Notes: generated by a model not told the origin, from the sequence alone. DNA of 53,302 bases from Patescibacteria group bacterium (GCA_043807255.1 JAZDGD010000010.1:1-53302); one strand, 5' to 3'. Numbered from the stretch's first letter, positions 23,112 to 45,229 are shown. A program made the numbers and translations.

Positions 23112-23161
23112 GGAGGTTTAACCTCCCGAAATTATTTTTTAATATTATGAGGTTAAACCTC
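23112..23161. repeat. Double-hairpin module GGAGGTTTAACCTCC-N22-GAGGTTAAACCTC, ending 11 nt upstream of the oxidase start
   Basis: Perfect palindromes at 23112-26 and 23149-61. The AT-rich spacer contains ATATTAAAAAATAA (minus strand). A near-identical module lies at 36055-36108. Confidence 0.9.
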
Positions 23162-23186
23162 TTAACATTAATTATATCACGTCAAA

Positions 23187-23350
23187 CAAAAAAGAGCGAA
23201 TATCGAGTGAGTGCTGTCACAGAGCGATAGTGGCAACAATCATTTCAGCGGGAAAATGCTCTTTTTATCTCTCCTCTGTTTTGTCCTACAAAAGCAGATT
23301 CAAGTCGGACAAAAAGCTTCCGCCTCAATTACGATATTCGCTCTTTTTTG
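23187..23350. other. 19-bp perfect inverted repeat CAAAAAAGAGCGAATATCG enclosing 126 nt (candidate structured RNA or MITE-like element)
   Basis: Arms at 23187-23205 and 23332-23350. Internal stems are AGAGC/GCTCT (23221-25 and 23258-62) and TTTTGTCC/GGACAAAA (23279-86 and 23307-14). No ORF of note. Confidence 0.6.
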
Positions 23351-23419
23351 GCCCCTATCGCCAAATACGAGCATATTTATTATATGAAAACAATTTTTAA
23401 AAGTCAAGCGGTGCGTTTA

Positions 23420-23476
23420 CGAGGCTAAGCCTCGACGAATTTATTTTTTTAACTTTACGAGGCTTAGCCTCGTAAA
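23420..23476. repeat. Two copies of the CGAGGCTWAGCCTCG palindrome at the 3' end of the PAP2 gene
   Basis: CGAGGCTAAGCCTCG (23420-34) lies after the stop. TTTACGAGGCTTAGCCTCGTAAA (23454-76) lies inside the last codons. Confidence 0.9.
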
Positions 23477-23920
23477 ATGTACAATTATTCCCGACAAAAT
23501 TCCAATTAATGCACCACCAATAACATCTGATGGCCAATGAACACCGACATAAATTCTTGCAATTCCAACTAATATTGCAACCACGAAAGCAACAATTCCC
23601 CATTTTTTATTAAAAAAATAAATCGCCATTGCGATGGCAAAAACTATTGTGGCATGTCCCGATGGAAACGAAAACGGTTCGCCATTCGGTCTGGTTGTAT
23701 TTAAAATTCTTTTTAATGGTTCGGCAACAACGACACGAGCAAGGAGCGTTGTGACAGCAACAGAAATTGCCATCAATCGTGTTTTTTTGACAAATAGAGC
23801 GATAATGAAAACAATCCCCACAAGATACAATAAGTAGTCAGCAAAAAATAATCCCAAGAAATCAATAATCTTTGAAGTGTTTGCAATTCCATTAATTGTT
23901 TGAAAAATCGTTGCGTTCAT
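23441..23920 (-). CDS. PAP2-family phosphatase (undecaprenyl-diphosphatase-like)
   Basis: KRILNTTRP, PSGHA and HWPSDVIGG acid-phosphatase motifs in a multi-TM protein. Confidence 0.8.
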   Translation of the reverse strand: MNATIFQTINGIANTSKIIDFLGLFFADYLLYLVGIVFIIALFVKKTRLMAISVAVTTLLARVVVAEPLKRILNTTRPNGEPFSFPSGHATIVFAIAMAIYFFNKKWGIVAFVVAILVGIARIYVGVHWPSDVIGGALIGILSGIIVHFTRLSLVKLKK

Positions 23921-23966
23921 TACTATTATTTTATCAGATTTTTCTAAAAAATAAAAGAGCCCATGT

Positions 23967-26147
23967 CTAATTTTTGTATCGCTTCATTGATAAAGAATTG
24001 CTTACTACGCTTACTGATGAAAAAGCCATGGCCATCGCAGCAATAGCGGGATTTAAAAGCCAACCAGTTAAAGGATATAAAATTCCGGCTGCAACAGGAA
24101 TGCCAACCACGTTATAAATAAATGCCCAAAAAAGATTCTGTTTAATTTTCTTTAATGTAAATTTGCTTAAGTCAATTGCTCTTACTACATCACGCAAATC
24201 ATCTTTAATTAGAACGATGTCTCCTGTTTCCATGGCAATATCGGTGCCAGAGCCCAATGCAATGCCTAAATCAGCCTGTGCTAGTGCTGGAGAATCATTT
24301 ATCCCGTCTCCAACCATTGCTACAATATTTCCTTGGCTTTGTAATTTTTTAATTTCGTCTGATTTTCCTTGTGGTAAAACTTCTGCTAAAACTTTATCAA
24401 TTCCGAGCTCTTTGGCAATCGCCTCTCCTACGCGTTTATTATCGCCAGTGATTATGGCAACCTTCTTGCCAAGATTATGCAACATTTCTATTGCTTGTTT
24501 TGAAAAATCTTTTAGTGTGTCAGCCACTGCAATTAACCCCATTATTTTATTGTCAAAACTTAAAATCATTACTGTTTTTCCTTGGTTTTCTAATTCCTCC
24601 ATTCGTTTTTCAACTGATTGAATGTCAATGTTGTTATCTGCCATTAATTTTCTGTTTCCAAATAAAATTATTTTGCTATCCAGTTTGGCCAAAACTCCAT
24701 GACCAGGTATTGCTTGAAAGTCCCTAACTTCATCCAGTATAAGATTTTTATTTTTGGCCTCATTAACAATTGATTGCGCTAATGGGTGTTCAGAATTTTT
24801 CTCAATAGAGGCTGCTAATTGTAAAATATTTGCTGGCAAAACATCGGTTACAACTGGTTCTCCTTTTGTTAGGGTTCCAGTTTTATCAAAAACAATCATA
24901 TTTACATCGCGAGCAATTTCTAGTGCTTTTCCGCTTTTAATTAAAATTCCATTTTTTGCTGCAAGCCCAGTGCCCATCATAACTGCGGTTGGAGTTGCAA
25001 GCCCCAACGAACAAGGACAAGCAACAATTAAAATTGCTACAAAAATTGTAAGTGCAAAAGTAAATGATTGCCCAAAAATTAACCAAGCGATAAATGCGAT
25101 AACGGCAATAATCATAACCGCTGGCACAAAATAAAAAGCAACCTTATCAGCTAAAAGTTGAATTGGTGCTTTTGAGCCCATTGCCTCTTCAACAATTTTA
25201 ATAATTTGTGCAAGCATTGTATCTTTGCCAACGCGAGTTGCTTTAAATTTTAAAACCCCAGTTTTATTAATTGTTGCTCCGATCACTTCATCGCCAATCT
25301 TTTTTTCAACAGGGATACTTTCTCCTGTGATTGCTTTTTCGTCAACGCCAGAATACCCATCAATTACAATTCCATCAACTGGAATTTTTTCGCCAGGTTT
25401 AACTAAAATAATATCATTAACTTTTACTTCAGATATTGAAATTTTTATTTCTTCGCCATCTCTTAAAATAGTTGCTTCTTTTGGCTGAAGTCCCATTAAT
25501 TTTTTTATTGCATCGCCAGTTTTGCCTTTGGTTGCGGTTTCTAAATATTTTCCCAAAGAGATAAAAACTAAAATCAATGCTGCGCTTTCATAATATAAAT
25601 GTTCTCCAGAAAAATTTGGTTTAAATAAAATCATTAAAGATATAACTATACTATAAAAATAAGCAGCCAAAGTCCCGATTTCAATCAAAGAGTCCATATT
25701 TGGACTTCTTTTAATTAATTTTTTCAGTCCAGAGATATAAAGTGGATAATTTACAGCCATAATTGCTGTTGTGATTATAAATTGAATAATTACATTTAGC
25801 TTTATAGAAATATTAATTTGTGGAAGTCCAAGCATTTTGCCCATAGTTAAATAAAGAATTGGAATTCCCAAAATTAATGAAAAGATAAAAGCATTTTTTA
25901 ATTTTTTAATTTCATTTTTAATTTTATCTTTATCATCTTTCTCTTGTATCTTATATCCTAAATCATTAATTATTTTTTGTATTTTTAAAATATTAATTTT
26001 TTGTTCATCAAATTCTAAATAAGCCTTTTCCGTGGCAATATTAACATTTGCGGAATTTATTCCGCTTTCATTTTTTAATGCATTTTCAATTACGCTTGAG
26101 CAGGAAGCACAGTGCATGCCCAAAATATTTAATGTAATTTTTTCCAT
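23967..26147 (-). CDS. copA: Copper-translocating P1B-type ATPase
   Basis: N-terminal HMA GMHCASC, with CPC, DKTGTLT and [10 protein letters not shown]. Confidence 0.93.
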
Positions 26148-26151
26148 ATAT

Positions 26152-27543
26152 TTAAATTACTTCCATTACTCCAGAAACCATTCCCATCCAACAACTAAAT
26201 TTATATTTTCCAACTTTTGTTGGCGTAAATTCTTTCACGCTAGTTTTTCCAGGAGCAAGATCAATTGAACCACTAAATAGATTTCTTGAAATAACGGCAT
26301 TGGTACAACCACTTGTGCCAGTATCAGTAATTTCCCATCGCACAGGAACGTTGACTCTTACTTTAAAATAATTTGGCGTATATCTACTTGCCGATGCTTG
26401 CATTTTCAGAATTTGCTTGCCATTAACCATTGGCGCCAAGTCCTTAATTTCGCCTTTTGTGGTATTGTTGTCTTGAACACTATTTAAATTTAAATTACTT
26501 AAACTCGGAAGGCCCAATGCGTTTAATTGAGCATTCAAATTAAACAAGGCAAAAAACAAAACCAAAATTCCAGCAATTTTTAAAAACTTGCCAGCCAAAT
26601 GTGGCTTTTGAGAAAATTTAATTGAAGACAGGCCAATTGCAAATAATGCTGGCAATGTTCCTAATGCGAAGAAAAACATAATCAAAGCACCTTGTACTGC
26701 GCCACCAGAAATCAATGCCAGCCCTTGAGCAGTTATGGTGAATCCGCAGGGAAGAAAAAAGGTCAATGCTCCCATTATAAATGGCATATATTTGCCCTTA
26801 AATTTGGTTTCGTCAGCAATGCGTCGAGTTATAAATTTAGGCATTGTGAATTGAAATTTTCGAAATGCTTTTACTCCCAACATTTGTAATGACAAAAAAA
26901 ACATCATTATAGATACGGCAACAATTAGAATGGAGGTAAAGACCAAAGAAACTTGGAATTTACTGCCAATAGCGCCAATAAGTCCACCTAAAACAGTATA
27001 AGCAATAACTCTTCCAACATTAAACATGATATGTGGTTGAAGTTTTTTCTTGGTTGAGTCCTTTTCCGAATACATTTCCGTCCATTGTTTTGACATTGAA
27101 AGAATTAGTCCGCCGACTAAAGCTGCGCAACTAGAAACTCCAGCCAAAAGTCCCAAAAACAGAAAAGCCGGCAAAGACGATTTAGAGGTAACATTAATTA
27201 TGCCAGAGAGATTGCTATTTTTTATTAAGGAAAAACCGATGATTATAAATATTGCCACTCCAACAATCGTAGAAGTATCGTTTTTCTTTCCTTGTTCTTG
27301 TTCTTTCTCTTTTGTTTTTAGCATTTGATTAGAAAAAATATAATTTTCTTTTTCAAATATTTTGTTTAATTCATTTGTTTCTGGTAATTCTCCTTCAAAT
27401 TCAATTCTGATTTGTTCATTTTTGACGGATGCTTCAACTGATTTTACGTTTTTGAATTCCAACATTCTCTTTTCAATAATAAGCTCGCAAGATGCACAAT
27501 GCATCCCCTTTACGTGGTATATGTGTTCTTTAATGTTGCTCAT
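26152..27543 (-). CDS. HMA domain / DsbD_2-like membrane domain / C-terminal cupredoxin-like domain protein
   Basis: GMHCASC after ATG 27543, multi-TM core with SSCA and LPCG, and a C-terminal [16 protein letters not shown]. The ORF-track N-terminal extension overlaps ndk and is unlikely to be real. Confidence 0.75.
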
Positions 27544-27578
27544 AGATTTTAATACTCTTTTCTCTGTTAATATATTGC

Positions 27579-27609
27579 ATAATGCCCATACCAAGGGTAC
27601 GGGCATTAT
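27579..27609. promoter_or_regulatory. 31-nt palindrome upstream of the copper genes (candidate metal-sensor operator)
   Basis: ATAATGCCC-A-TACC-AAG-GGTA-C-GGGCATTAT lies 36 nt upstream of ATG 27543. Confidence 0.4.
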
Positions 27610-27635
27610 TTTAAGATAGTTATTTGGGTTTAATT

Positions 27636-28226
27636 TTAGAACATTATATCTTCTTCTGCGCGCTTGTAGTCGTGAATTTCTTCTGGTGAAAACCAAAATT
27701 CAATTTCGTGTTTTGCTTCTTCTGGCGTTTCTGATGCATGAATGAGATTTCTAATACCTCTCTTGCCTTTGTTCGCTGCAATTGGTGAATCAACTGAAAA
27801 ATCTCCCCTAATTGTTCCCATTTCAGCTAGCGCAGGAACTGTATTGCCAACCAATTTTCTTACCATGTCTATGGCGTGTATGCCCTTAATCACCATTTTA
27901 ACAACTGGGCCAGAGGTCATATAATCAATTAACCATCCCCTAACCATCTTGCCAATTTCTTCTGAACTATCTGTGCCAATTTCATCTTTAGCGTTGAAAC
28001 CATATTTATCATAAGTTGCTTTTGTTTTTTCGCCAATTCTTGTTATCCATTCAATGTTTTTTGGATAGTGGTCGTCAACCTGCTGTTTCGTTGGCCAGGC
28101 CATTTCCAAAGCAATAATTTTAAGTCCACGCCTTTCAATGCGCGAAACAACTTCTCCAACCAATCCCCTCTTTACTCCATCTGGTTTTATTAATACCAAT
28201 GTTTTTTCTTCTTTTGGTTCAATCAT
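27636..28226 (-). CDS. ndk: Nucleoside diphosphate kinase (long form with internal insertion)
   Basis: LVLIKPDGVKRGLVGEV, TIRGDF and NLIHASE (catalytic His). Confidence 0.88.
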   Translation of the reverse strand: MIEPKEEKTLVLIKPDGVKRGLVGEVVSRIERRGLKIIALEMAWPTKQQVDDHYPKNIEWITRIGEKTKATYDKYGFNAKDEIGTDSSEEIGKMVRGWLIDYMTSGPVVKMVIKGIHAIDMVRKLVGNTVPALAEMGTIRGDFSVDSPIAANKGKRGIRNLIHASETPEEAKHEIEFWFSPEEIHDYKRAEEDIMF

Positions 28227-28246
28227 GTTATTTATTTTAAATTATT

Positions 28247-28921
28247 TTAATTCTGAATGCAAATGTAGCGATATTTTTTAAATTGATCTTTGTAAATTTT
28301 ATAATTTGGATAATTTAATTCTTTTAACAATTTTTCTAAATCCATCTTTTGTAAACAATCAAACTCCATATATATTTTACCGCCCGGTTTTAAATATTTC
28401 CTCGCATCTTTTAAAAATTTTCTGATATATAGCAATCCGTCTTCTCCACCAAATAGGGCCAGATGTGGTTCATAATCAAGCACTGATTTTTGAATTAGGT
28501 GCTTGTTTTTTATCGATACGTATGGAGGATTGGCAAAAATATAGTTGTATCTTGTGCCCAATATTCGGTCCTTGAAGGACCGAAATATGTCCGATTGAAT
28601 TACTTTGTATTTGCGTGGGTTGATTTTATTTAATTTTAAGTTTAGCTGGATTTGTTTAATCAAATTTTTATCAATTTCTATAAAATCTACTTTTGAATTC
28701 TCGATATGTTTTAAAATTGAAATGCCAATACATCCAGAACCAGCAAACACGTCTAGCACGTTGACATCTCCAACAATTCCAGCGCTTCCAACATCTTGCA
28801 TTGTTTTTTTTATCCAAAATTCTGTTTCTTTTCTTGGAATTAGTGGCTTCATAGACAAATTAATTTTGCATCCAGCAAAATTAATATAATCTTTTTTATA
28901 TTCTTTTGGTATGTTATCCAT
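28247..28921 (-). CDS. prmC: Release-factor glutamine N5-methyltransferase (short form)
   Basis: VLDVFAGSGCIG SAM loop and NPPY. ATG 28921 is preferred over the GTG at 28960. Confidence 0.8.
   Translation of the reverse strand: MDNIPKEYKKDYINFAGCKINLSMKPLIPRKETEFWIKKTMQDVGSAGIVGDVNVLDVFAGSGCIGISILKHIENSKVDFIEIDKNLIKQIQLNLKLNKINPRKYKVIQSDIFRSFKDRILGTRYNYIFANPPYVSIKNKHLIQKSVLDYEPHLALFGGEDGLLYIRKFLKDARKYLKPGGKIYMEFDCLQKMDLEKLLKELNYPNYKIYKDQFKKYRYICIQN
28561..28588. repeat. 28-nt near-perfect palindrome inside prmC
   Basis: ATATTCGGTCCTT-GA-AAGGACCGAATAT gives a 13-bp stem and encodes IFRSFKDRIL just upstream of NPPY. Confidence 0.9.
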
Positions 28922-29495
28922 TAAAATTTTTACCAATAATAAATATTTCTCTGCTTTCACTGCGACTAGCCAATGGTTTGTAACGTTTTACGAAACTAAA
29001 ACTTTGTTCCATTTTTTTAAAAAATTCTTGTATCCCCTCGCCTTCAAATATTTTGCAAAGAAAATTGCCACCCTTATTTAAGCTGACTTTTGCAATTTCT
29101 AATGCCATTTCACATAATTCTATTGATCTTTGAACGTCCACAGAATGATCTCCGGAAGTGTTTGGTGCCATATCAGACATGATTACATTAAACTTTTTGG
29201 TAATTGAATTACCAAAATTTGATACATCCAATTTTAAAAATGTTGCATTAGAAGGAATTTCTGTTTTTAAATCTTCTAAATCAACCCCTGTTACTGCCCC
29301 CTTTTCTCCAATTTTTCGAGAAGCATACAGCAACCATGAGCCTGGAGCGCATCCCAAGTCCAAAACTTTATCATTTTTTTTAAATAAATTAAACTTTTCA
29401 TCAATTTGTTGAAGCTTGTAAACTGAACGAGCAGGATACTTATCCTGTTTCGCTTTTAATGTATAATATTCTTCTTTTAGGTCTTGTCTGTACAT
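28914..29495 (-). CDS. rlmE: 23S rRNA U2552 2'-O-methyltransferase (FtsJ/RlmE)
   Basis: RSVYKL, VLDLGCAPGSW and IMSDMAPNTSG. ATG 29495 is preferred over the TTG at 29522. Confidence 0.85.
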   Translation of the reverse strand: MYRQDLKEEYYTLKAKQDKYPARSVYKLQQIDEKFNLFKKNDKVLDLGCAPGSWLLYASRKIGEKGAVTGVDLEDLKTEIPSNATFLKLDVSNFGNSITKKFNVIMSDMAPNTSGDHSVDVQRSIELCEMALEIAKVSLNKGGNFLCKIFEGEGIQEFFKKMEQSFSFVKRYKPLASRSESREIFIIGKNFNG

Positions 29496-30280
29496 TTTAT
29501 TTTTCTCCAAGCCAAATAACAAATAATAATAACGATTATCAGCAACAAAAATAACAAATATTTGGAATATTTTTCAAAAAACCCCGGCTTATATGGCACG
29601 AAAATACCTTTTGGCATGGCAATGGAAACAGTAATGCCCTGATTTTTTTTCAGGGTTGTGGCACTATAAACTTGTAAAATATTATTAGTATACCAACCGT
29701 AACTTGCCAAACTATTGGTTTTTGCATTCAAATCTCCAGAATAAATAGAAATGGGGCTGTTTTCTTGTTTCGCCCCGCTGGGCAAAACAATTTCCGTAAA
29801 AGTACTATCAATTTCTAAATCCCAAAAAGCTCCGACAACATTCCAATACAATTCATCAAATTCAGGATTATCAAAACGAATTGTATTTTCAACTCGATAA
29901 ATTATTTTGTAATTATTTACACCGATAACGGTTCTGTTCGCATCACCAATCTTCCAGGTTACCGTGTTATTTTGTTTGGTTGTAGAATATTTATATGGCG
30001 TGCCATTAAAATCAGTAATACTAATTAATTTTACAGAGATAGAAATCGTTTTTCCCGAAGTTTTAATTTGTAATGGCAATGTTCTAAATATGCCATGCTT
30101 ATCTGGCAAGTTTCCGCAGTCGGCAGTAATATATTCTGTGATTAAAAGCGAAGAATCAGTATTTACAATGATTTCTGTTTTTAGATTTTTAACATACCAA
30201 TCATTAACCACGTCTCGAGCAAAAGACGTCGGCACAAATAAAAATAAACCAATAAAAAATATAAAAATAAATTTTCTCAT
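29477..30280 (-). CDS. DUF2207-like secreted/membrane protein (short form)
   Basis: Signal peptide, the N-terminal DUF2207 pattern (WYVKNLKTEIIVNTDSSLLITEYI...GIFRTLP), and a C-terminal TM. Confidence 0.6.
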   Translation of the reverse strand: MRKFIFIFFIGLFLFVPTSFARDVVNDWYVKNLKTEIIVNTDSSLLITEYITADCGNLPDKHGIFRTLPLQIKTSGKTISISVKLISITDFNGTPYKYSTTKQNNTVTWKIGDANRTVIGVNNYKIIYRVENTIRFDNPEFDELYWNVVGAFWDLEIDSTFTEIVLPSGAKQENSPISIYSGDLNAKTNSLASYGWYTNNILQVYSATTLKKNQGITVSIAMPKGIFVPYKPGFFEKYSKYLLFLLLIIVIIICYLAWRKIKCTDKT

Positions 30281-30303
30281 ATTTATAACCCGTTTGACGG
30301 GTT

Positions 30304-31326
30304 TTAGTCCTTTCTTTCAATTGCAAAATCAATAATTTTTTGGATTAAATCAGCATAAGTCATGTTTGCTGCTCTTGCCGAAGTGGCAATGTCAAATTCT
30401 TCAGAAACATCGGGATTGGGATTAATTTCAAGGGCATAAAGTTTTTTTTCTTTTTCGTCGTATCTAAAATCTATTCGCGCATATCCCCTGCAACCAAAAA
30501 TCTTATAACATTTTCTTGCAGTATCTTCTATTAATTTAATTGTTTTTTCATCTATATTTAGTGCTGGGCAAATTATTGGAGTGTGTTTATATGCCATACT
30601 TTGTTTTATCCATTTTGCTCGATAAGAAACGATTTTTGGTAAATGTTCTGGCATGCCAGCAAAATCAATCTCTGCAACAGGTAAAGCAATCGGTCTTTTG
30701 TTGCCAATTAAAGAAACTGTAAATTCTCTACCATCGATAAATTCTTCAACTAAGGCCTCTTGTTTATAAAAATTTACAATATGGGCAATTTCTTCCTTTA
30801 ATTGTTCTTCGTTTATAACCACAGATCGTTCCCTTATGCCAACGCTTCCATCTTCACGAATCGGTTTAACAATTAAGGGGTATTTTAATCCTGGATCAAC
30901 TTTTCTGTCAGCAGCTGCAAAAACTTGAAACTTAGGAGTTAAAACCCCGTTATAAGTTAAAATATCTTTTGCTCTGGCTTTGTTTTGACATAAAGCAATC
31001 GTGAAATAATTGTTCCCAGTATAAGGAACATTTAAAATATCAAACATTGCTGCAACGTGTGGCTCTAGATTATAATCACCACGAAAACCATCGTCACATA
31101 GATTAAAAACAACATCTGGTTTTTCAGCGCGAATTTGATAATAACTATCTTCGCTTAAAGAATAAATTTTTACATCATGATTCGGCAATGCTCTTTTAAT
31201 TGATAATGCGTCTTTAATGTTTTCTCTGCCATATCCGCCAGAGGCATCGGCTGTCTTACCGTTCATTTGTTTTGTGTTGGCGTCTTCAGCCGAACTTAGA
31301 TTTCTTGTCAAAATTAATACTCTCAT
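30304..31326 (-). CDS. ATP-grasp ligase of the D-Ala-D-Ala ligase-like family
   Basis: VVFNLCDDG...EPHVAAMFDILNVPYTGN, LIVKPIREDGSVGI and ALEINPNPD. Confidence 0.75.
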   Translation of the reverse strand: MRVLILTRNLSSAEDANTKQMNGKTADASGGYGRENIKDALSIKRALPNHDVKIYSLSEDSYYQIRAEKPDVVFNLCDDGFRGDYNLEPHVAAMFDILNVPYTGNNYFTIALCQNKARAKDILTYNGVLTPKFQVFAAADRKVDPGLKYPLIVKPIREDGSVGIRERSVVINEEQLKEEIAHIVNFYKQEALVEEFIDGREFTVSLIGNKRPIALPVAEIDFAGMPEHLPKIVSYRAKWIKQSMAYKHTPIICPALNIDEKTIKLIEDTARKCYKIFGCRGYARIDFRYDEKEKKLYALEINPNPDVSEEFDIATSARAANMTYADLIQKIIDFAIERKD

Positions 31327-31335
31327 AAAAATTAC

Positions 31336-36043: not shown

Positions 36044-36054
36044 GTTTATATTTT

Positions 36055-36108
36055 GAGGTTAAACCTCCTTAAATTATTTATTTTTTAATATCGGGAGGTT
36101 TAACCTCC
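36055..36108. repeat. Double-hairpin module GAGGTTAAACCTC-N26-GGAGGTTTAACCTCC, ending 11 nt upstream of the SDR start
   Basis: Palindromes at 36055-67 and 36094-108. The spacer shares ATATTAAAAAATAA with the module at 23112-23161. Confidence 0.9.
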
Positions 36109-36139
36109 GCACATTTTTTATTATAACAGAATAAAAATT

Positions 36140-36172: not shown

Positions 36173-36189
36173 GGCGAATTCGCACGACA

Positions 36190-36372
36190 CTACCTGATTA
36201 TTACAATCAGGTTGCATGTCTCACACTTGTGCCCGTGTCTGACCACCGGACCGTTCGCTTCTGCATGGAGTTCCATCGTCTTGCCACATTCCGGACATTT
36301 GGGATATGTTACAAAAAAGTACTTCAATCCCCTCAAAGAACCAAAAGAAATCGTTCTGCTCGCCTTTTCCAT
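36190..36372 (-). CDS. 60-aa zinc-ribbon protein in a GC-rich islet
   Basis: CPECG...CETC four-Cys pattern and SD AAGGAGA 7 nt upstream. The last 7 codons lie in the hairpin ACCTGATT/AATCAGGT. Confidence 0.6.
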   Translation of the reverse strand: MEKASRTISFGSLRGLKYFFVTYPKCPECGKTMELHAEANGPVVRHGHKCETCNLIVIIR

Positions 36373-37457: not shown

Positions 37458-38549
37458 TTACGCATTGCTTTTAATTTCAATTACATCGCCATCTTTGATG
37501 ATGGCTTCCTTGCCTTCGGTGCGGATTAGACCTTTTTCGCGAGCATTTCCAAAACCGTTGGCATTTAGCAGGTCCTTCCAATTTACAACCTCTGCCTTAA
37601 TGAAACATCTTTCAAAATCAGTATGAATTACTCCGCCTGCTTGTGGTGCAGTACTGCCCCTGGTCAATGTCCAAGCACGAGTTTCATCTGCTCCTGTTGT
37701 TAAAAACGTGATCAAATCAAGCAATCTGTATGCTTCTTTAATCAATTCGTCCAACTTTGATAATTCTGATAAGCCCAATTCTTTCCTTTCTTCCGTGCCT
37801 AAATCGTTTGCCCCAAATTCACTTAAAATATCAATGATAATATATGGCCAATTTTTATCCTTGAAAACGTTTGTAATTTCGTCAGGAATTTCTTCTTCTT
37901 GACCATTCAATAAATACAAACGTTTTTTCATTGTCAAAAGTTGATAACTACGTAAAATAACTAATTCTTCTTCATCCCACCCCATTTCACTCAAAATTTT
38001 TCCAGTTTTTAAAAATTCCATCGCCTTCTTTAAAACCTCATTTTCTCCGCCAAAAGCTTTGCATTTTGACGGGCCCGCCTGCATCCCGCGGGTTGCGGCG
38101 GGCTTCTTCAGTCTCTCTAGGACATTCTCTACGGTCTCCAAGTCCTTCAAAGCCATTTCCGTATCTAAAATCTCTTTATCTTCTACTGGGTCAATTTTTT
38201 CACGAGTATTAATAATTTTTGCATTTTTAAAGCAACGCAAAACATATACAATAGCATCAACTTCTCTGATGTTGGCTAAAAATTTATTGCCCAATCCCTC
38301 GCCTTGACTCGCGCCCTTAACCAATCCAGCAATATCAACAAATTTTACGGTTGCATAAATCTTTTTTGCCGAATGAGTTAATTCCGCTAACTTATCAACT
38401 CGTTCGTCAGGAACAGCAACCACACCAATGTTTGGATCAATGGTGCAAAATGGATAATTTGCGCAATCTACTTGTTTTTTGGTGATCGCCTGAAACAGGG
38501 TTGATTTCCCCACATTCGGCAATCCCACAATTCCAATTGAGAGAGACAT
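37458..38549 (-). CDS. ychF: Ribosome-binding ATPase YchF
   Basis: GLPNVGKSTLF G1 motif, inserted helical domain, and C-terminal TGS-like HTDFERCFIKAEV. Confidence 0.93.
   Translation of the reverse strand: MSLSIGIVGLPNVGKSTLFQAITKKQVDCANYPFCTIDPNIGVVAVPDERVDKLAELTHSAKKIYATVKFVDIAGLVKGASQGEGLGNKFLANIREVDAIVYVLRCFKNAKIINTREKIDPVEDKEILDTEMALKDLETVENVLERLKKPAATRGMQAGPSKCKAFGGENEVLKKAMEFLKTGKILSEMGWDEEELVILRSYQLLTMKKRLYLLNGQEEEIPDEITNVFKDKNWPYIIIDILSEFGANDLGTEERKELGLSELSKLDELIKEAYRLLDLITFLTTGADETRAWTLTRGSTAPQAGGVIHTDFERCFIKAEVVNWKDLLNANGFGNAREKGLIRTEGKEAIIKDGDVIEIKSNA
38073..38103. repeat. 31-nt GC hairpin inside ychF
   Basis: GCCCGCC-T-GCA-T-CCCGCGGG-T-TGC-GGCGGGC encodes PAATRGMQAGP. Positions 38072-38085 are identical to 45628-45641. 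Confidence 0.9.
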
Positions 38550-38587
38550 ATCTTTATCCTATCAGAAATTATTAAAATTTGAAAGTT

Positions 38588-38625
38588 AAAAAAATCTTAC
38601 GAGGTTAAACCTCGTAAGATTTTTT
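38588..38625. terminator. Bidirectional-type terminator built on the GAGGTTAAACCTC core
   Basis: AAAAAATCTTACGAGGTT-A-AACCTCGTAAGATTTTTT is a perfect palindrome between rarA and ychF. Confidence 0.85.
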
Positions 38626-38628
38626 CCA

Positions 38629-38663
38629 ATAGATGCAATAGATGCATCTATAGATGCATCTAT
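38629..38663. repeat. ATAGATGCA x3, forming two overlapping ATAGATGCATCTAT palindromes
   Basis: Units at 38629, 38638 and 38650, immediately after the rarA stop. Confidence 0.8.
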
Positions 38664-38670
38664 CTTGTGC

Positions 38671-39894
38671 TTAATTTAAGTATTTTTTATTCTTTAATTT
38701 GTCCGGTAGATATTCTTGCTTTTCTTGATAATTGAAATCGGGAGAATATTTGTAGTCCTTTCCGTAATTTAAATCTTTCATTAATTTTGTTGGCGCGTTG
38801 CGGATATGCAGTGGCACGGGCAAATTTCCAAATTCTCTAACATCTTGCATTGCTTTTTCATAAGCCGTATATAATTCATTCGATTTTTTGCATTTTGCCA
38901 TATAAACAACTGCTTGTGCTAAAATTACTCCACATTCAGGCATTCCAATGAAATGACAGGCATTGTATGCGTCTACGGCCTGATTTAAGGCCATAGAATT
39001 AGCCAATCCTATATCTTCTGACGCAAATCTAACGATTCTTCGCGCAATATATAGTGGGTCTTCTCCGCCCTCTAACATTCTACAAAGCCAATAAATTGCT
39101 GCATTTGCATCGGACCCACGCATTGATTTGTGTAACGCAGAAATAATGTTGTAATGTTCATCGCCATTTTTATCATATAAAAGATGTGATTTTTGAAATG
39201 ATTCTTTAATAATTTCCGCAGTAATGTTTTTCGATAAAGATGAAGCATATTCCAAAACATTTAAAGCCGTTCGCGCATCGCCATTAGACATATGTGCCAA
39301 CAAATCAATCACCTTTTTGTCCATTTTCATTTTAAAATATCCCAATCCTTTTTCTTTATCCTTTATTGCCTGATTGATAATCTTAATTAAATGTTCTTTG
39401 GTTAATTGTTTTAAAACAAAAACTCTGCACCTCGAAAGCAGGGCTCCTACAACTTCGAAACTTGGATTTTCAGTTGTTGCGCCAATTAAAACAATCAATC
39501 CCCTTTCAACGTCCGGAAGCAAAGCGTCTTGTTGTTTTTTGTTCCAACGATGAATTTCATCAATAAATAGAATTGTTTTCTTGCCTAAACGTTCATTTTG
39601 TTTAGCAATTTCTACAATTTCTCTTAATTCTTTTAGTCCAGTATCAACAGCGCTAATTTTTTTAAAATCCGACTTTGTGGTTTTGGCAATAATATATGCC
39701 AAAGTTGTTTTACCGCTTCCCGGCGGACCCCAAAAAATCATTGAAGGCAATTGATCTGACTCAATCGCCTTTTTTAATAATTTATCATTACCAATAATTT
39801 CTTCTTGTCCAAGAAACCCATTCAACGTTTCTGGGCGCATTCTATCGGCTAATGGATTTGAAAAATGTTTCATAATTTTATAATTACAGGTCAT
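38671..39894 (-). CDS. rarA: Replication-associated recombination protein A (AAA+ ATPase)
   Basis: [26 protein letters not shown], and the MgsA C-terminal domain. An alternative start lies at 39873. Confidence 0.9.
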
Positions 39895-40591
39895 CTAGAT
39901 TGCACCCCCCACAGCCACAATTAAGCTTTCGGTAACTGGAAATATTGATTATTAAATCATCTTTGTTTCCAGTGAAAATAATTCTGTCTCCAGGCTCAAA
40001 TTCATTTTCTTTTAATCTGAACGACTCTGAAGGAAATATTGCATCTATAATTCTTCCATTTAAATCTATAATTTGTATTTCATTTTCATTAATTTTATGA
40101 ATTTGCCCTTGATAAGTATTGGGAAAATTAACTGGTTTTGGGCTATATAAGGAATCGTTAATTAAACAAGAGACTCCTCTGTGAAAAAATTCTCGGTGCA
40201 TTAAAACTCCACAAGCCGTACTAAAGATCAGCACAATTAACAAAGAATAAATTAATGGTCGTCTGTATGCAAATTTGAATCTTTTTACTAAATATTCAAT
40301 TAATAAAATTGCAAATAAAGTTACTGAAACAAAAACCCACGGCAAAGAATAAATTAAATATAAAACACCCATAAATCCTGTGGTTATTAAAAATTGAGCA
40401 CCATTATTTTTTAAGGAAAAAACCATAAAACTAATTAAAAACACCACAATCATAATTAAAATTATAATCGTCGCAACCATAAAAATAGCTTTTAGGGCAT
40501 AAGTAAATTTGGGATGCATTTTTAAATCACCCTTTTTGATTTCATTCAAAATTCTATCTTTTATTGAATTTTTTTCTTGATCATTGTTCAT
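39884..40591 (-). CDS. Membrane protein downstream of the ECF sigma (putative anti-sigma factor, by context only)
   Basis: The ATG at 40591 overlaps the sigma gene by 11 nt. It has several TM helices, a soluble C-terminal domain, and ends [11 protein letters not shown]. Confidence 0.4.
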   Translation of the reverse strand: MNNDQEKNSIKDRILNEIKKGDLKMHPKFTYALKAIFMVATIIILIMIVVFLISFMVFSLKNNGAQFLITTGFMGVLYLIYSLPWVFVSVTLFAILLIEYLVKRFKFAYRRPLIYSLLIVLIFSTACGVLMHREFFHRGVSCLINDSLYSPKPVNFPNTYQGQIHKINENEIQIIDLNGRIIDAIFPSESFRLKENEFEPGDRIIFTGNKDDLIINISSYRKLNCGCGGCNLDDL

Positions 40592-41147
40592 AGTCAATAT
40601 CAACGTTATTACAATTTAATTTTAACATTTCCTTGCCTCTTTTTAACCGAACTCCAACCGTTGAAACCGGAACGTGCATAATATCGGAAATTTCTTTATA
40701 GTCCATTTCTTCAAGATAGTACAACATTAAAACTTCACGATATTTGGGAGATATTTTTTCTAAACATTTATCGAGAATTCTTTTTGTCTCATCATCTTTT
40801 GTCCCACGATCCGTTTTTTCATTTGAGACCGGATGAGGGAAAATTGTATCTGGATCAAAAAACGGCAATGGCAATCTATCTTTTTTCCTTAAAACGTTTA
40901 TTAATTCATTATGCGCAATTCTATATGCCCATGGAGAAAATCTTTTGTCTATGTCAAAACTTTTAATATTAGAGTATATCTTGATAAAAATTTCCTGTGT
41001 TACATCTTTTATGTCTTCTGGGTTACTTAAAAACTTTCGCGCATATCTCTTAAATTTCTCTTCGTATCTCTCAATTAAAATTCCAAACGACTCAGGGTCG
41101 CCATTTTGCACTATTTTAACAATTTCCTCATCTGTGCGATTATCCAT
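40581..41147 (-). CDS. ECF-type RNA polymerase sigma-70 factor
   Basis: Region 2 (DVTQEIFIKIY...FSPWAYRIAHNELIN) and region 4 (YREVLMLYYLEEMDYKEISDIMHVPVSTVGVRLKRG). Confidence 0.88.
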   Translation of the reverse strand: MDNRTDEEIVKIVQNGDPESFGILIERYEEKFKRYARKFLSNPEDIKDVTQEIFIKIYSNIKSFDIDKRFSPWAYRIAHNELINVLRKKDRLPLPFFDPDTIFPHPVSNEKTDRGTKDDETKRILDKCLEKISPKYREVLMLYYLEEMDYKEISDIMHVPVSTVGVRLKRGKEMLKLNCNNVDIDYEQ

Positions 41148-41197
41148 ACTGCCATATATTATACATTAAATTAAATAAGATTGTTTCAAAAAAAACA

Positions 41198-42457
41198 TTA
41201 TTTGATGCCAGCACTTTCTCCTGCAATATATCCCGTTGTCCAGCAAACCTGTAAATTGTATCCGCCAGTTGGGCCGTCGAGGTCAAGTATTTCCCCAGCA
41301 AAATATAAATTATCTATTAATTTTGATTTCATCGTTTTTTGATCAATTTCACTCAATTTAACCCCGCCAGAAGTAATAATTGCTCTTTCGTGATCAGCCA
41401 ATGATTTCACTGTTAATGTAAATTCCTTTAAAAGATGGGTTAATCTTTTTCTTTCCTCCTTAACTATTGAACCAGATTTTTTACTGGGATTGATTTTAGA
41501 CAATTCTATGATAACGGGAATAAGTTTCTGTGGCAATAATTCATTCAAGCTATTTTTAAATAATTTTTTACAATCTTTTTGAAAATCATTTTGAATTCTT
41601 TGGTCGAGTTTTAAAAAATCTAATGCTGGTTTAAAATCTATTTTAATTTCAACATTGCCGGGTAGTTCTTGTCCAATTTTTTTACTCATATCGATGATAA
41701 TTGGTCCACTCATTCCGTCGTTTGTAAATATTGCCTCGCCAAACCTGGAGTCAATTTTTTTATTATCTTTATAAATACTGATTTCGACATTTTTTAAGCT
41801 CAATCCCTCTAATTCTTTAACTATTTTCTCTTTTACAATAATCGGCACAAGAGCCGACGAAAGTTTTGTAATTGTATGTCCCAATTTTTCGGCCCATTTA
41901 TATCCATCTCCGGTAGAACCAGTGCCAGAGTGCGACTTCCCTCCTGTAGCAATTATGAATTTATCTGCAATAATTTCTTCATTATCCGCAAGAATAATTT
42001 TTTCGATTTTATTGTTTACCCCGAGCACGATCGAGGGGTTTTTTATTATTTTTTTTACTTCTGAATTTAATTTTATTTTTACATTCGATTTTTTGAGATA
42101 GCCAACTAACGTTTCAAGCACATCTTCTGATTTATCGCTTATTGGAAAAACCCTCTCCCCTCTTTCAACTTTTGTTTTTAAATTAAGTTTTTCAAAAAAT
42201 TCTATTGTTTCCTTGGCCCCAAATCTAGAAAGAGCAGAAAAAAGAAATTCACCGTTTTTTCCGAGTTCATTTATAAATTTTCTCAAATTATTTTCTTTAT
42301 TTGTAATATTGCATCTCCCCTTGCCCGTAATCAAAAGTTTTTTCCCGAGATTCTTGTTTTTTTCAATCAAAACAACGCTGGCTCCTAATTCGCCAGCTTT
42401 TCCCGCAGAAATCATCCCCGCAGGTCCTCCGCCAATTACCGCTACATCGTATTTCAT
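41198..42457 (-). CDS. HI0933/YhiN-like FAD flavoprotein
   Basis: MKYDVAVIGGGPAGM from ATG 42457, with GKGRCNITN and the C-terminal AGEILDLDGPTGGYNLQ. Confidence 0.82.
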   Translation of the reverse strand: MKYDVAVIGGGPAGMISAGKAGELGASVVLIEKNKNLGKKLLITGKGRCNITNKENNLRKFINELGKNGEFLFSALSRFGAKETIEFFEKLNLKTKVERGERVFPISDKSEDVLETLVGYLKKSNVKIKLNSEVKKIIKNPSIVLGVNNKIEKIILADNEEIIADKFIIATGGKSHSGTGSTGDGYKWAEKLGHTITKLSSALVPIIVKEKIVKELEGLSLKNVEISIYKDNKKIDSRFGEAIFTNDGMSGPIIIDMSKKIGQELPGNVEIKIDFKPALDFLKLDQRIQNDFQKDCKKLFKNSLNELLPQKLIPVIIELSKINPSKKSGSIVKEERKRLTHLLKEFTLTVKSLADHERAIITSGGVKLSEIDQKTMKSKLIDNLYFAGEILDLDGPTGGYNLQVCWTTGYIAGESAGIK

Positions 42458-42550
42458 ACGTAATTTTATTGTATCAGATATTTCATCTATTGACAAGAAC
42501 TTATTTCTGATATATACTGTTATTATAATCAATAATTGAATCTCTTGATC

Positions 42551-42572
42551 GGGACCAATTGGTCCCTTTTTT
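42551..42572 (+). promoter_or_regulatory. Hairpin plus T-run in the leader of the DEAD-box helicase gene
   Basis: GGGACCAATTGGTCCC is followed by TTTTTT, 14 nt upstream of ATG 42586, in a divergent intergenic region. Confidence 0.45.
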
Positions 42573-42585
42573 ATTTACATAAAAT

Positions 42586-43788
42586 ATGAATAGAAGTTTC
42601 AACAACAAAAGAAGGCGTGTTGCATATCCCTCTCGATTCAAAACGAGTGGTTCTTCGGGTTACAGAAAAAGCAATCAACGTGGAGAATTTATAGATCCTC
42701 AAAAATTCATTAACAAGGCAATCATGAATCAAAAAGAAGAATGTTTTGTTGCTAAACATCAATTTCAAGATTTTAAAATTAATCAACAAATAATAAAAAA
42801 TATTGAGATCAAGGGATACGTTACCCCAACACCAATACAAGACCAAGTTATTCCGGCCGTACTTGATGGCCGTGACGTTGTTGGCATTGCCAATACCGGA
42901 ACAGGTAAAACGGCTGCCTTCCTTGTGCCACTTATTAATAAAATACTACTCAATCCAAAAGAAAAGGTTTTAATTGTTACTCCGACCAGAGAACTTGCCC
43001 TGCAAATAAATCAAGAATTTAAACTTTTTACTAAAAATATTAAAATCTTTTCTGTTTGTTGCGTGGGAGGTGCGAACCTTGCCAGACAGATCTCTGAGCT
43101 CAACTACAATTATAATTTAATCGTTGGAACAACTGGACGATTAAAAGATTTAATCGAAAGAAAGAAAATAAATTTATTTAAATTTAATACCGTCGTATTA
43201 GACGAAGTCGATCGAATGATGGACATGGGATTTATTAACGATACTCGTTTTATAATGAGCAACACTCCCAAAGAAAAACAGGTTCTTTTATTTTCGGCAA
43301 CTATTTCTAGTAAAATCGAAGATTTAATTAAAGATTTTCTTAAAAATCCAATTAAAGTTTCCGTTAAAACCAGAGATACCGCACAAAACATTGAACAAGA
43401 CATTATTAGAATAACAGATCGAACCAAAAAAGTGGACATTTTACACGATCTTTTAATCCAAGAAGAGTTTTGCAAAGTTCTTGTATTTGGACGAACAAAA
43501 CATGGAGTAGAGAATCTTTCTAAGATGCTTATACATCGAGGGCTAAAGGTGGAATCAATACACGGCAATAAAAATCAATCTCAACGACAACGAGCGCTTG
43601 AAATGTTCAAAGGAAATCGTATTCAGGTTTTAATAGCAACCGATGTTGCTGCTCGCGGACTTGATATTGACAACATAAGCCATGTAATAAATTACGATAA
43701 ACCCGCAACCTACGATGATTACGTTCATCGTATTGGAAGAACTGGCAGAGGAGACAAAAAAGGCAAATCACTGACATTCATCGAATAA
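42586..43788 (+). CDS. DEAD-box ATP-dependent RNA helicase
   Basis: Q motif, ANTGTGKTAAF, DEVD, SAT and HRIGRTGR. Confidence 0.92.
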   Translation: MNRSFNNKRRRVAYPSRFKTSGSSGYRKSNQRGEFIDPQKFINKAIMNQKEECFVAKHQFQDFKINQQIIKNIEIKGYVTPTPIQDQVIPAVLDGRDVVGIANTGTGKTAAFLVPLINKILLNPKEKVLIVTPTRELALQINQEFKLFTKNIKIFSVCCVGGANLARQISELNYNYNLIVGTTGRLKDLIERKKINLFKFNTVVLDEVDRMMDMGFINDTRFIMSNTPKEKQVLLFSATISSKIEDLIKDFLKNPIKVSVKTRDTAQNIEQDIIRITDRTKKVDILHDLLIQEEFCKVLVFGRTKHGVENLSKMLIHRGLKVESIHGNKNQSQRQRALEMFKGNRIQVLIATDVAARGLDIDNISHVINYDKPATYDDYVHRIGRTGRGDKKGKSLTFIE

Positions 43789-43808
43789 AAATCATAATCA
43801 ATCAAACT

Positions 43809-43842
43809 AAAAATCACCCCGATGTACATCGGGGTGATTTTT
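43809..43842. terminator. Bidirectional terminator between helicase and csp
   Basis: AAAAATCACCCCGATGTACATCGGGGTGATTTTT is a perfect palindrome. Confidence 0.88.
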
Positions 43843-43863
43843 ATTAACAAATTTAAAATAAAA

Positions 43864-44061
43864 TTAAATTCTATTTACATTTGTTGCGTTTGGTCCTTTT
43901 GGAGAATCTGCCTTGTCAAAAGACACAGCATCTCCGGTCTTCAACTCTTCGAAAGTTACGCCTTTAAGTTCATTTTTGTGAAAAAATAAATCTTTAGCCT
44001 CGCCTTCAACAGCAATGAATCCAAACCCTTTTTCGTTAAGGTTTTTGATTGTTCCGTTCAT
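43864..44061 (-). CDS. Cold-shock protein (CspA family)
   Basis: MNGTIKNLNEKGFGFI (RNP1) and DLFFHKNE (RNP2-like). The start is ATG 44061. Confidence 0.88.
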   Translation of the reverse strand: MNGTIKNLNEKGFGFIAVEGEAKDLFFHKNELKGVTFEELKTGDAVSFDKADSPKGPNATNVNRI

Positions 44062-44070
44062 GTTTTTTCG

Positions 44071-44088
44071 CCCCGATAGACATCGGGG
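44071..44088. promoter_or_regulatory. 5'-leader hairpin of csp, related to its terminator palindrome
   Basis: CCCCGATAGACATCGGGG lies 9 nt upstream of the csp ATG. Compare CCCCGATGTACATCGGGG at 43817-34. Confidence 0.55.
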
Positions 44089-44217
44089 TAAATTAATGAT
44101 TAACATTTTAAGGTCTTCCCTAAAGTTTGGTTTCAAAAATAAACTCGACTAAAATTTTATTAAGCAACCCACTTGTACTATATTAGTATAGCATACATTT
44201 AATAAACAATCAATGAT

Positions 44218-45189
44218 TTATGTCAAATATTTTTGTTTAATAATTTCTCTAAGGATTTCTTCCACTTTATCAATATTAATATTTTCTGTTGTTGAAATCG
44301 CAATTGCGTTTTTGCCAATAGCTTTTAGCTTTTCTGTTTTTTTATCAACTTCTTCCTTGCTCAATAAATCGCTTTTACTCAAAAAAACATATTCCGGTTT
44401 ATTTAACAATTCTTTGTTATGGGCCTTTAATTCATTTCTTACAATTTGATAATCTATAGTTGGCTCAATTGATTCTGCAGAAATAATATGAAATAAAATT
44501 TTAGTGCGTTCAATGTGACGCAAAAATTTAATTCCCAATCCCTTGCCCGTTGATGCTCCTTCTATAAGCCCAGGAATATCTGCTAAGATCAATTCATAAT
44601 AAACGCCAAGGTTTGGTTCAAGAGTTGTAAAGGCATAATTGGCCACCTTGCTCTTAGCATTGGTTAATTGATTCAATAAACTCGACTTACCAACGTTTGG
44701 TAGGCCAATAAAACCAATATCAGCGATTAATTTAAGTTCTAGGCGTAATTCACACTCTTCTCCTGGTTTTCCCTGTTCGGATTCGGTCGGACTAGTGTTT
44801 CTTGACGAACGAAATCTATAATTTCCTCGGCCACCCTTTCCGCCCCTTACAACCAACAAACGCTGACCAATAGAAACTATTTCCGTGTCTTCTTTGGTAG
44901 ATAAGTTATGAATTATTGTGCCAATGGGTATTTTTAAAATTAAATCTCCACCATTTGCTCCATCATTAAGTTGTGGTTTTCCTCTCTCTCCGTTTTCTGC
45001 TTTCAATTCTTTCTTGTGTTGAAATTGTCCCAATGCGCCCAGGTCTGACACGCCCTCAACGTAAACGCTACCACCGATGCCACCGCTTGAACCCGTTGGC
45101 CCTAACGACATCTTGTTAGTATTAAATGCCACAATTCCATCTCCACCATTGCCGGCTTTTACTTTAATTTTTACATCGTCAATTAACAT
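44218..45189 (-). CDS. obg: GTPase Obg/CgtA (short form)
   Basis: Obg fold (KVKAGNGGDG..., glycine-rich repeats) and G domain GLPNVGKSSLL, DIPGLIEGA. Confidence 0.92.
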   Translation of the reverse strand: MLIDDVKIKVKAGNGGDGIVAFNTNKMSLGPTGSSGGIGGSVYVEGVSDLGALGQFQHKKELKAENGERGKPQLNDGANGGDLILKIPIGTIIHNLSTKEDTEIVSIGQRLLVVRGGKGGRGNYRFRSSRNTSPTESEQGKPGEECELRLELKLIADIGFIGLPNVGKSSLLNQLTNAKSKVANYAFTTLEPNLGVYYELILADIPGLIEGASTGKGLGIKFLRHIERTKILFHIISAESIEPTIDYQIVRNELKAHNKELLNKPEYVFLSKSDLLSKEEVDKKTEKLKAIGKNAIAISTTENINIDKVEEILREIIKQKYLT

Positions 45190-45208
45190 ATATTCATTAT
45201 TTTAATGT

Positions 45209-45229
45209 TTACGAGGCTAAGCCTCGTAA
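45209..45229. repeat. TTACGAGGCTAAGCCTCGTAA palindrome 20 nt upstream of the obg start
   Basis: Perfect 10-bp stem. Same family as 23454-76 and 38595-38620. Confidence 0.9.

Follow-up and report, generated by a model that had tools for sequence, protein, structure and literature searches.

Dispersed palindromes in Patescibacteria as probable REP and REPIN elements of a REP-RAYT system

A short palindrome recurs in a 53,302-nucleotide stretch of DNA from a Patescibacteria group bacterium (GCA_043807255.1, JAZDGD010000010.1:1-53302; the whole stretch is called the window below). It is most probably the top of a repetitive extragenic palindrome (REP), its doublets being REPINs (REP doublets forming hairpins), within a system of REPs and REP-associated tyrosine transposases (RAYTs) that is widespread in Patescibacteria, the candidate phyla radiation (CPR). 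The elements form hairpins whose stems are maintained by compensatory changes within and between genomes, are gained and lost between relatives, and have entered non-coding DNA as well as coding DNA, in the latter case in frame; in many CPR genomes copies of the same element bracket a Y1/HUH gene of RAYT type. An initial annotation of the window had hesitated between a family of the REP or bacterial interspersed mosaic element (BIME) type and a palindromic operator for one DNA-binding protein, and the former is upheld by the hairpin, by the insertions and by the flanked RAYT of related genomes.

The core, GAGGYTWARCCTC, has eight exact matches in the window (starts 23113, 23149, 23421, 23459, 36055, 36095, 38601, and 45213), which are the eight copies listed in the initial annotation, versus none in 100 dinucleotide-preserving shuffles. 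When two mismatches are allowed, only two weak sites are added, at 15409 and 16145. Exact copies of the 21-base form TTACGAGGYTWARCCTCGTAA start at 23455, 38597, and 45209, in agreement with the earlier remark that three copies share a longer form, and near-exact ones at 23145 (two mismatches) and 23417 (three mismatches). Core positions 5 and 9 (Y5/R9) are complementary in all eight copies, as T:A in five and C:G in three, and half-sites such as TACGAGG do not occur in the window outside the palindromes.

The window has a GC content of 34% and, by a simple longest-ORF call (ORF, open reading frame), a coding share of 92.6%, with 44 of 46 genes on the - strand. Despite this coding density seven of the eight copies are intergenic (binomial P = 9e-8), and if the copies are counted as five insertion events, the probability of finding at least four of five intergenic is 1.4e-4. 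The ORF positions confirm the placement first proposed, i.e., upstream of the starts of the oxidase, short-chain dehydrogenase/reductase (SDR) and obg genes, at the 3' end of PAP2, and beside rarA. The core is found 11-12 nt 5' of the FAD oxidase (ATG at 23100) and of the SDR epimerase (36043), and 23 nt 5' of obg (45189); of the remaining copies, that at 38601 is located between rarA and ychF and another at the 3' end of PAP2. The accompanying claim that copies are always at gene boundaries holds for the window, with the qualification that the copy at 23459 is not strictly extragenic, as it lies within the last 12 codons of the PAP2 ORF (C-terminus ..HFTRLSLVKLKK, followed by the stop); it does not hold for Patescibacteria at large, where about 30% of copies are deep in genes, in frame.

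Six of the eight copies pair into three doublets, named A, B, and C (Table 1), with a centre spacing of 36, 38, and 40 bp. The central base of one palindrome is always the opposite of that of its partner, so that the two members of a doublet are reverse complements of each other. The spacer, A-rich on the - strand, is common to all three doublets (type TTAAAAAATAA(A)TTYCG), that of doublet C being of the same type as that of doublet A. As single-stranded DNA (ssDNA), every doublet folds into a single long hairpin (dG -14.8 to -22.5 kcal/mol, z -6.5 to -8.0), so that the traits by which a REPIN is recognized, namely inverted units, a shared spacer, and a minimum-energy fold into one long hairpin, are present in three of three. 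The single copies fold into stems of 9 and 17 bp with a 3-nt loop. All elements of the window are perfect palindromes of 13-37 nt, with ssDNA fold z values of -5.3 to -8.3. Regarding their surroundings, doublet A is located between the extended -10 box TGATATAAT (23179-23171, - strand) and the oxidase ATG, and doublet C between TGTTATAAT (36128-36120, - strand) and the SDR epimerase ATG; the distance from either doublet to its ATG is 11-12 nt. Doublet B extends over the 3' end of PAP2, of which it encodes the last residues, TRLSLVKLKK, and the stop codon (23441-23443), and it is followed on the - strand by a near-perfect TTGACT-N17-TATAAT (promoter-like site 23407-23379).

That these copies were acquired by insertion can be seen from relatives, whose oxidase homologs are 85-90% identical and one of which is named Candidatus Paceibacterota. 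Presence or absence at orthologous loci, put forward at the outset as a check, was compared over the PAP2 - small RNA - oxidase locus from three relatives (four loci, 69 kb in total), and all copies are missing from these loci: there is no match even when the five central bases of the core are left free (GAGG-N5-CCTC). Promoter, RNA gene, and coding sequence align between window and relatives around the insertion points. Only 6 nt separate the -10 box and the oxidase ATG (..gtgatataattaaaatATG) in the relatives' loci L085 and L087; in the window this gap is taken up by doublet A. PAP2 of L085 ends in ..IGIVVHLLI and a stop, without the element. Since close relatives have no copy at the orthologous locus, the window copies are taken as recent insertions. 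Around the insertion points, even these closest relatives (85-90% protein identity) have diverged too far for exact insertion boundaries or a target-site duplication to be defined. It was also observed that in L085 (9975-10003) and L087 (9978-10003) the oxidase ATG follows a TGnTATAAT box by 6 nt, an arrangement that suggests a leaderless mRNA. In the window the same type of box is split from the ATG by a doublet at both 23171-23179 and 36120-36128, with no Shine-Dalgarno sequence near the ATG.

Insertions have also been accommodated by coding sequences. Deep in CPR genes, in-frame copies are translated as ..TRLSLV.. or ..YEAKPRK.., in MiaA, PGK, CysRS, SerRS, TsaD, glutamate dehydrogenase, and leucyl aminopeptidase as well as in DegT aminotransferase, glycerate kinase, and prepilin peptidase. 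Compared with solved homologs, PGK has 5 and TsaD 9 extra residues at the element. The same TsaD loop, just after the HxxxH metal-binding motif, holds an in-frame element in two MAGs that are labelled differently, as Parcubacteria and Saccharibacteria (L018 6366 and L032 7342), which is either an old shared insertion or a repeated insertion at a favoured site.

The distribution of the element was determined by scanning genomes, one per species, with the 19-base query TACGAGGYTWARCCTCGTA. The scan matched 84 stretches, about 70 of them in metagenome-assembled genomes (MAGs) of Patescibacteria whose record titles include Parcubacteria, Wolfebacteria, Saccharibacteria, Kaiserbacteria, Sungiibacteriota, Yanofskybacteria, Jorgensenbacteria, and Paceibacterota, and copies are found on many contigs in other CPR MAGs. 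The family is consequently not private to this genome: its core is common to many CPR lineages. A few of the 84 stretches look like chance matches. They include the long tRNA variable arm in two Burkholderiales MAGs (L020 1700-1790 and L034 4300-4400), taken as a chance resemblance. In IMG/VR only one match to the element was found, so that phages are not an evident vehicle.

In the loci of other genomes the core caps longer perfect hairpins, whose lower stems vary between genomes, stay complementary, and are constant within a genome, e.g., AAGTAC..GTACTT in JAZKFU, TCTAC..GTAGA in WFZM and JBBTVQ, and CAATCTTAC..GTAAGATTG in many others. The core variants GAAGTTSAACTTC and GAGGCGAAGCCTC likewise keep the pairing, and the tetranucleotides at the foot (TTAC..GTAA, CTAC..GTAG, or GTAC..GTAC) are present on both sides and base-paired. 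To judge by these sequences, the stem pattern is what a family multiplying inside each genome would look like. Lower stems that vary and yet stay complementary favour a nucleic-acid hairpin over a fixed protein-binding site, which bears directly on the other initial proposal, that of an operator for one dimeric DNA-binding regulator of the neighbouring genes. Although a perfect palindrome of 13-21 bp near the start codons and promoters of several genes has the look of such a site, a protein site does not require stem extensions that differ while remaining complementary, and half-sites never stand alone. Moreover, copies are found at 3' ends and deep in coding regions, the neighbouring genes are unrelated in function, and the orthologous promoters of relatives lack the site, the copies having been gained as insertions. 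An operator is therefore extremely unlikely, and this part of the initial annotation is abandoned.

An independent scan of metagenome contigs for doublets gave at least 120 loci with at least 129 doublets; the metagenome figures in this text refer to the matches listed. Of the 129 doublets, 83 are inverted, with opposite central bases, and many have inverted inner flanks as well, e.g., GAACA...TGTTC. Placement was counted over loci with a GC content of at most 50%. In the genome loci (85% coding), 57 copies are intergenic, 12 are at ORF edges, and 32 are deep in ORFs, while the metagenome loci (84% coding) have 153 intergenic copies, 20 at edges, and 66 deep inside. With an intergenic share of 56-64% versus about 15% of non-coding DNA in these other CPR loci, the element prefers intergenic DNA about four-fold. 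Beside some copies, partial tandem duplications of one arm were noticed, e.g., gcctcgtaaacttgt three times in a row (Table 1), which may be due to slippage or to abortive processing at the hairpin.

A core common to many CPR lineages could also be expected of an inverted pair of DNA-uptake sequences, as in Neisseria and Haemophilus, enriched through natural competence. CPR bacteria rely on competence, copies are found in genes as well as between them, and in its inverted form the element is reminiscent of the terminator-type pairs of uptake sequences. This possibility is nonetheless hardly credible, because uptake sequences are mostly single copies whereas single half-sites are absent here, and because the copies arise by insertions that add residues and not by substitution. 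None was found in 69 kb of close relatives, and the specific bracketing of a Y1 transposase gene, described below, would not be expected of uptake signals.

A RAYT-like gene, which the initial annotation had proposed to look for elsewhere in the genome, was found in related genomes. Loci with several copies of the element repeatedly hold an ORF of 185-240 aa starting with ..YH[IV]YNRG... All six neighbour proteins tested pass the Pfam model Y1_Tnp (PF01797), with 24-39 bits against a cut-off of 23, and their sole NCBIfam match is NF047646, REP-associated tyrosine transposase (20-43 bits). The HUH motif (NHFH) and the tyrosine of YIHLNP are invariant in alignments of 7 and of 35 sequences. Because a sequence profile against the Protein Data Bank (PDB) found nothing, the relationship to a solved RAYT had to be established by a fold search: with Foldseek on an AlphaFold model, the top PDB match is 4er8_A, the Escherichia coli RAYT with its REP hairpin (E 6e-4), the next being TnpA of IS608 and ISDra2, and the top 30 of 30 are Y1 transposases. 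Low NCBIfam scores together with the missing PDB profile match indicate that the enzyme family is a distant clade of RAYTs. It comprises 5388 homolog clusters, named "transposase" at most, with hosts in Wolfebacteria, Parcubacteria, Azambacteria, Colwellbacteria, and Nealsonbacteria.

The association of gene and element is recurrent. About 15-20% of the loci contain a transposase homolog, namely 16-17 of 84 genome loci anchored on the element and 18 of 120 metagenome loci anchored on a doublet, even though each of these loci spans only about 5-8 kb; at a rough estimate, which assumes one gene per genome of about 1 Mb, chance alone would give fewer than one transposase locus per set. Among the 84 genome loci, a single MAG had at most two homologs. 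Three positions at the transposase gene are typically occupied: one copy precedes the ATG by 23-33 nt, another lies in frame within the gene (nt +156 to +195), and the last is at the stop. The upstream copy is present in 10 of 13 genes and the stop copy in 7 of 8 complete genes, with the flanking copies in inverted orientation in five of seven complete genes. To avoid circularity, three members of the transposase family on long contigs were also fetched starting from the protein, and in all three loci hairpins occupy the same three positions. Their cores are that of the window, GAAGTTSAACTTC, and GAGGCGAAGCCTC; the latter two loci have the same foot, AATCTTAC..GTAAGATT, and their internal copies agree in each case with the flanking ones.

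With regard to the internal copy, an in-frame copy of its own REP is usual in this RAYT clade (examples in Table 1). It encodes YEAKPRK-like residues between the first strand and the HUH motif, and YE[AV]KPR is found at residues 53-65 in 55 of the 120 closest homologs. The internal REP of a RAYT gene changes sequence together with the flanking REPs. We know of no described RAYT with an in-frame REP inside its own gene.

Two further explanations can be confronted with this association. Firstly, the element could be a miniature inverted-repeat transposable element (MITE) or another array-type repeat (e.g., TIGR or CRISPR-like) served by a different protein, its nearness to the Y1 gene being incidental. 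Doublets do have inverted ends like the terminal repeats of MITEs, and TIGR-Tas stem-loop arrays occur in CPR. The association with the transposase, however, recurs in both collections and when the search starts from the protein, there is no evident target-site duplication, and neither box C/D motifs nor arrays of more than 2-3 units nor Tas or Cas genes nearby were found, which leaves this explanation very improbable. TIGR-Tas arrays as such were considered as a candidate: as described in a 2026 preprint, they have, in CPR, palindromic stems with box C/D motifs and spacer pairs beside a Tas (Nop-domain) gene. They were rejected, as the element lacks box C/D motifs and comes in 2-3 units at most, and no Nop/Tas gene is among the ORFs listed or scanned in the window and the multi-copy loci.

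Secondly, the hairpins could be conserved functional RNA elements (intrinsic terminators, stabilizers of mRNA 5' ends, or processing sites) kept by selection, not mobile DNA. The single REP between the rarA stop (38671) and the ychF start (38549) is the most suggestive in this respect, since it forms a 17-bp hairpin in which an A-run and a T-run are included and paired, and it looks like a bidirectional terminator. The initial annotation had singled it out as the only copy with the flanks of a classical terminator; the flanking runs and the 17-bp stem were found again, but a simple terminator scan did not call the hairpin because the T-run is itself paired in the stem. Two doublets are located in predicted 5' leaders, transposase genes also carry a copy 10-20 nt before the ATG, and elsewhere REPs act secondarily as terminators or stabilizers (PMC3733652). 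Against these points, most copies lack a T-run, close relatives do without copies at the same sites, about 30% of copies are in frame inside ORFs, and it is the sequence that is conserved, not the structure alone, in strong association with a transposase. While a secondary role of this kind is compatible with REPs, it leaves the origin of the copies unexplained, and as a full account functional RNA is improbable. In the whole window no Rfam family was found at gathering scores, and in E-value mode the three intergenic regions gave only chance matches of microRNA type, owing to the long hairpins; no tRNA or tmRNA genes were found in the window either.

The identification as a REP-RAYT system has to be weighed against several observations. 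The unpaired GTAG/CGTC tag of classical REPs was not found, GTAG being present in some genomes but within the stem. The intragenic share, about 30% of copies, is high for REPs, and one core is common to many CPR lineages, which is unusual for elements that are normally lineage-specific; such wide sharing could point to a host function. Concerning the enzyme, the NF047646 scores are far under the equivalog cut-off of 80, the transposase model is of moderate confidence (pLDDT 61, pTM 0.52), and the sequence profile found nothing in the PDB at E <= 1. Finally, no RAYT gene was detected by tblastn of six CPR RAYTs against the 53-kb window and the relatives' loci, nor any transposase by a Pfam scan of the window's + strand genes and unannotated ORFs, a scan that did find a DEAD-box helicase, a PEGA protein, a sigma factor, a cold-shock protein, and others. 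For this organism the link to a RAYT is thus by homology of the element only.

By analogy with TnpA-REP of E. coli (4er8) and TnpA of IS608, the RAYT would bind the folded hairpin on single-stranded DNA, cut beside it by means of the HUH-bound metal and the catalytic tyrosine, and paste the REP or REPIN elsewhere. TTAC/GTAA (or CTAC/GTAG, GTAC/GTAC) at the foot of the conserved part probably aids recognition or cleavage. The window copies would then be passengers, inserted at sites that tolerate them: two in 5' leaders directly behind the promoter, one on the 3' end of a gene, one in intergenic DNA, and one 5' of obg. The intergenic copy between rarA and ychF could act as a putative bidirectional terminator-like hairpin, and any effect of the copies on the expression of neighbouring genes would be secondary.

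The system can be compared with three known types of elements. As in the REP/REPIN-RAYT systems of Proteobacteria (REP/BIME and TnpA-REP of E. coli, REPINs of Pseudomonas fluorescens), short dispersed hairpins are mostly extragenic in the window and in the CPR loci counted, inverted doublets form a single hairpin, the repeats that are dispersed also flank a Y1/HUH gene, the foot of the hairpin has a conserved tetranucleotide, and some copies are terminator-like. Unlike in these systems, the host belongs to the CPR and has a streamlined, AT-rich genome, the perfect palindrome is short and closes with a loop of 3 nt, and the tag is paired in the stem (TTAC/GTAA, CTAC/GTAG, GTAC) instead of being an unpaired GTAG. 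The sharing of one core by many named CPR lineages and the share of copies inside ORFs differ from proteobacterial REPs as well, and the CPR transposase is longer than proteobacterial RAYTs, very divergent, and usually encoded with an in-frame copy of the element.

Like Rickettsia palindromic elements (RPE) and intragenic GTAG/CGTC REPs, the element is inserted in frame into functional genes of small genomes, where it adds short loop peptides. REPs inside genes have been described before from other phyla (Di Nocera et al., 2013, PMC3733652). In contrast to RPE (100-150 bp, CGTC tag), the unit has only 21-35 bp and adds about 5-9 residues (..TRLSLV.., ..YEAKPRK..), and a transposase family could be identified for it. 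To our knowledge, descriptions of RPE include no adjacent RAYT. With the IS200/IS605 family (IS608, ISDra2), whose enzymes recognize subterminal ssDNA hairpins, the CPR transposase shares its fold and catalytic motifs. TTAC is the target and cleavage tetranucleotide of IS608, and the TTAC that borders the conserved core consists of the same four bases, with a putative role in cleavage. Unlike in IS200/IS605, the transposase is present once per locus set, it is the short hairpins that multiply and not the gene, and there is no TnpB partner.

Table 1. Coordinates of the elements and associated genes in the window and, where an L number is given, in other loci (dG and z, single-stranded DNA folding)
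Feature	Position	Strand	Details
REPIN-like doublet A	23107..23168	-	REPs 23112-23126 (GGAGGTTTAACCTCC) and 23145-23165 (TTATGAGGTTAAACCTCTTAA); dG -15.2 kcal/mol, z -7.3
REPIN-like doublet B	23417..23476	-	REPs 23417-23437 and 23455-23475 (TTACGAGGCTTAGCCTCGTAA); dG -22.5 kcal/mol, z -8.0
REPIN-like doublet C	36054..36109	-	REPs 36055-36067 and 36094-36108 (GGAGGTTTAACCTCC); dG -14.8 kcal/mol, z -6.5
Single REP	38589..38625	.	Long genome-typical stem AAAAAATCTTAC-GAGGTTAAACCTC-GTAAGATTTTTT; dG -16.7 kcal/mol, z -8.3
Single REP	45209..45229	.	TTACGAGGCTAAGCCTCGTAA, ends 19 nt 5' of the obg ATG (45189); dG -8.7 kcal/mol, z -5.3
FAD-linked oxidase/Fe-S gene	21265..23100	-	5' leader contains doublet A; homologs 85-90% identical
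PAP2 phosphatase gene	23441..23920	-	C-terminus rewritten by doublet B
Hairpin sequence of the element			AATCTTACGAGGCTAAGCCTCGTAAGATT
Copies flanked by partial arm duplications	L005 1585-1665, L024 5060-5115, L072 2850-2925, L016 5275-5315, L077 3525-3585
RAYT genes with internal REP	L016 5298-5939, L072 2923-3642, L082 5398-6102, L008 12-710, L090-L092 10001-10717

Some additional features adjoin the elements of the window. REPs of other CPR MAGs, e.g., in loci L072, L005, and L084, match the single REP 5' of obg without a difference over 26-27 nt. An exact-sequence look-up of the window's Obg protein gave no match. A few bases from the REP 5' of obg (45242-45258), a second hairpin, ACGACCTCGCAAGTCGT, is found, which is identical beside a REP in an unrelated Patescibacteria MAG (L048 284-300) and may be a second small repeat type. 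The region between rsgA and obg (45230-45771, 540 bp) is devoid of long ORFs on the gene strand and matches no Rfam family, and a 42-aa ORF on the + strand (45671-45799), with a strong GGAGG ribosome-binding site, overlaps the end of rsgA. Between rarA and ychF, short tandem repeats of ATAGATGCA(TCT) abut the REP (38629-38663). Between rlmN and doublet C, a 60-aa ORF (36190-36372, - strand) with two CxxC pairs encodes a zinc-ribbon-like small protein and is followed by a G+C-rich intrinsic terminator (36172-36155).

Positions 23165-23345 (- strand) include a region of about 165-180 nt that has the look of a structured RNA, with a closing stem of 19 bp (AAAAAAGAGCGAATATCG...CGATATTCGCTCTTTTTT), preceded by the promoter-like site at 23407-23379. 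Its identity in L085 and L087/L088 is about 79%, with 10 predicted pairs kept through two-sided changes, and it matches no Rfam family. As far as the sequence goes, this may be a small RNA of CPR bacteria that has yet to be described; a likeness to 6S RNA is no more than a guess.

No published description of the element, or of RAYTs or REPINs in Patescibacteria, was found in the open-access literature, and the RAYT/HUH surveys examined do not mention candidate phyla. The kind of element is known; new are the host group, the wide sharing of the core, the high intragenic fraction, and the in-frame hairpin in the transposase gene. The genomes of CPR bacteria are very small and densely packed; repeats are believed to be scarce in them, and their mobile DNA has been little studied. 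On a speculative note, and with less in its favour than against it, it can be proposed that REP-RAYT in Patescibacteria is old, largely kept by vertical descent, and domesticated instead of being a simple parasite, the RAYT controlling its own gene through the internal and pre-ATG hairpins while dispersed hairpins are reused as leaders, terminators, and protein loops. Such reuse by minimal genomes would explain why one core is found across many CPR lineages.

The identity as REPs and REPINs with a RAYT explains a frequent "mystery hairpin" at gene boundaries as well as odd short peptide inserts (..TRLSLV.., ..YEAKPRK..) in the conserved CPR proteins TsaD, PGK, CysRS, SerRS, and MiaA. The element may also explain assembly breaks, many of the retrieved transposase contigs being about 1-7 kb long. 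For annotation, a name is gained for thousands of proteins labelled only "transposase". The oxidase of the window, where a promoter-ATG junction that is leaderless-looking in relatives has been split by a hairpin of about 60 nt, provides a natural experiment on gene expression. More generally, a REPIN system is available far from Proteobacteria, with a testable oddity, namely a hairpin in the transposase's own reading frame.

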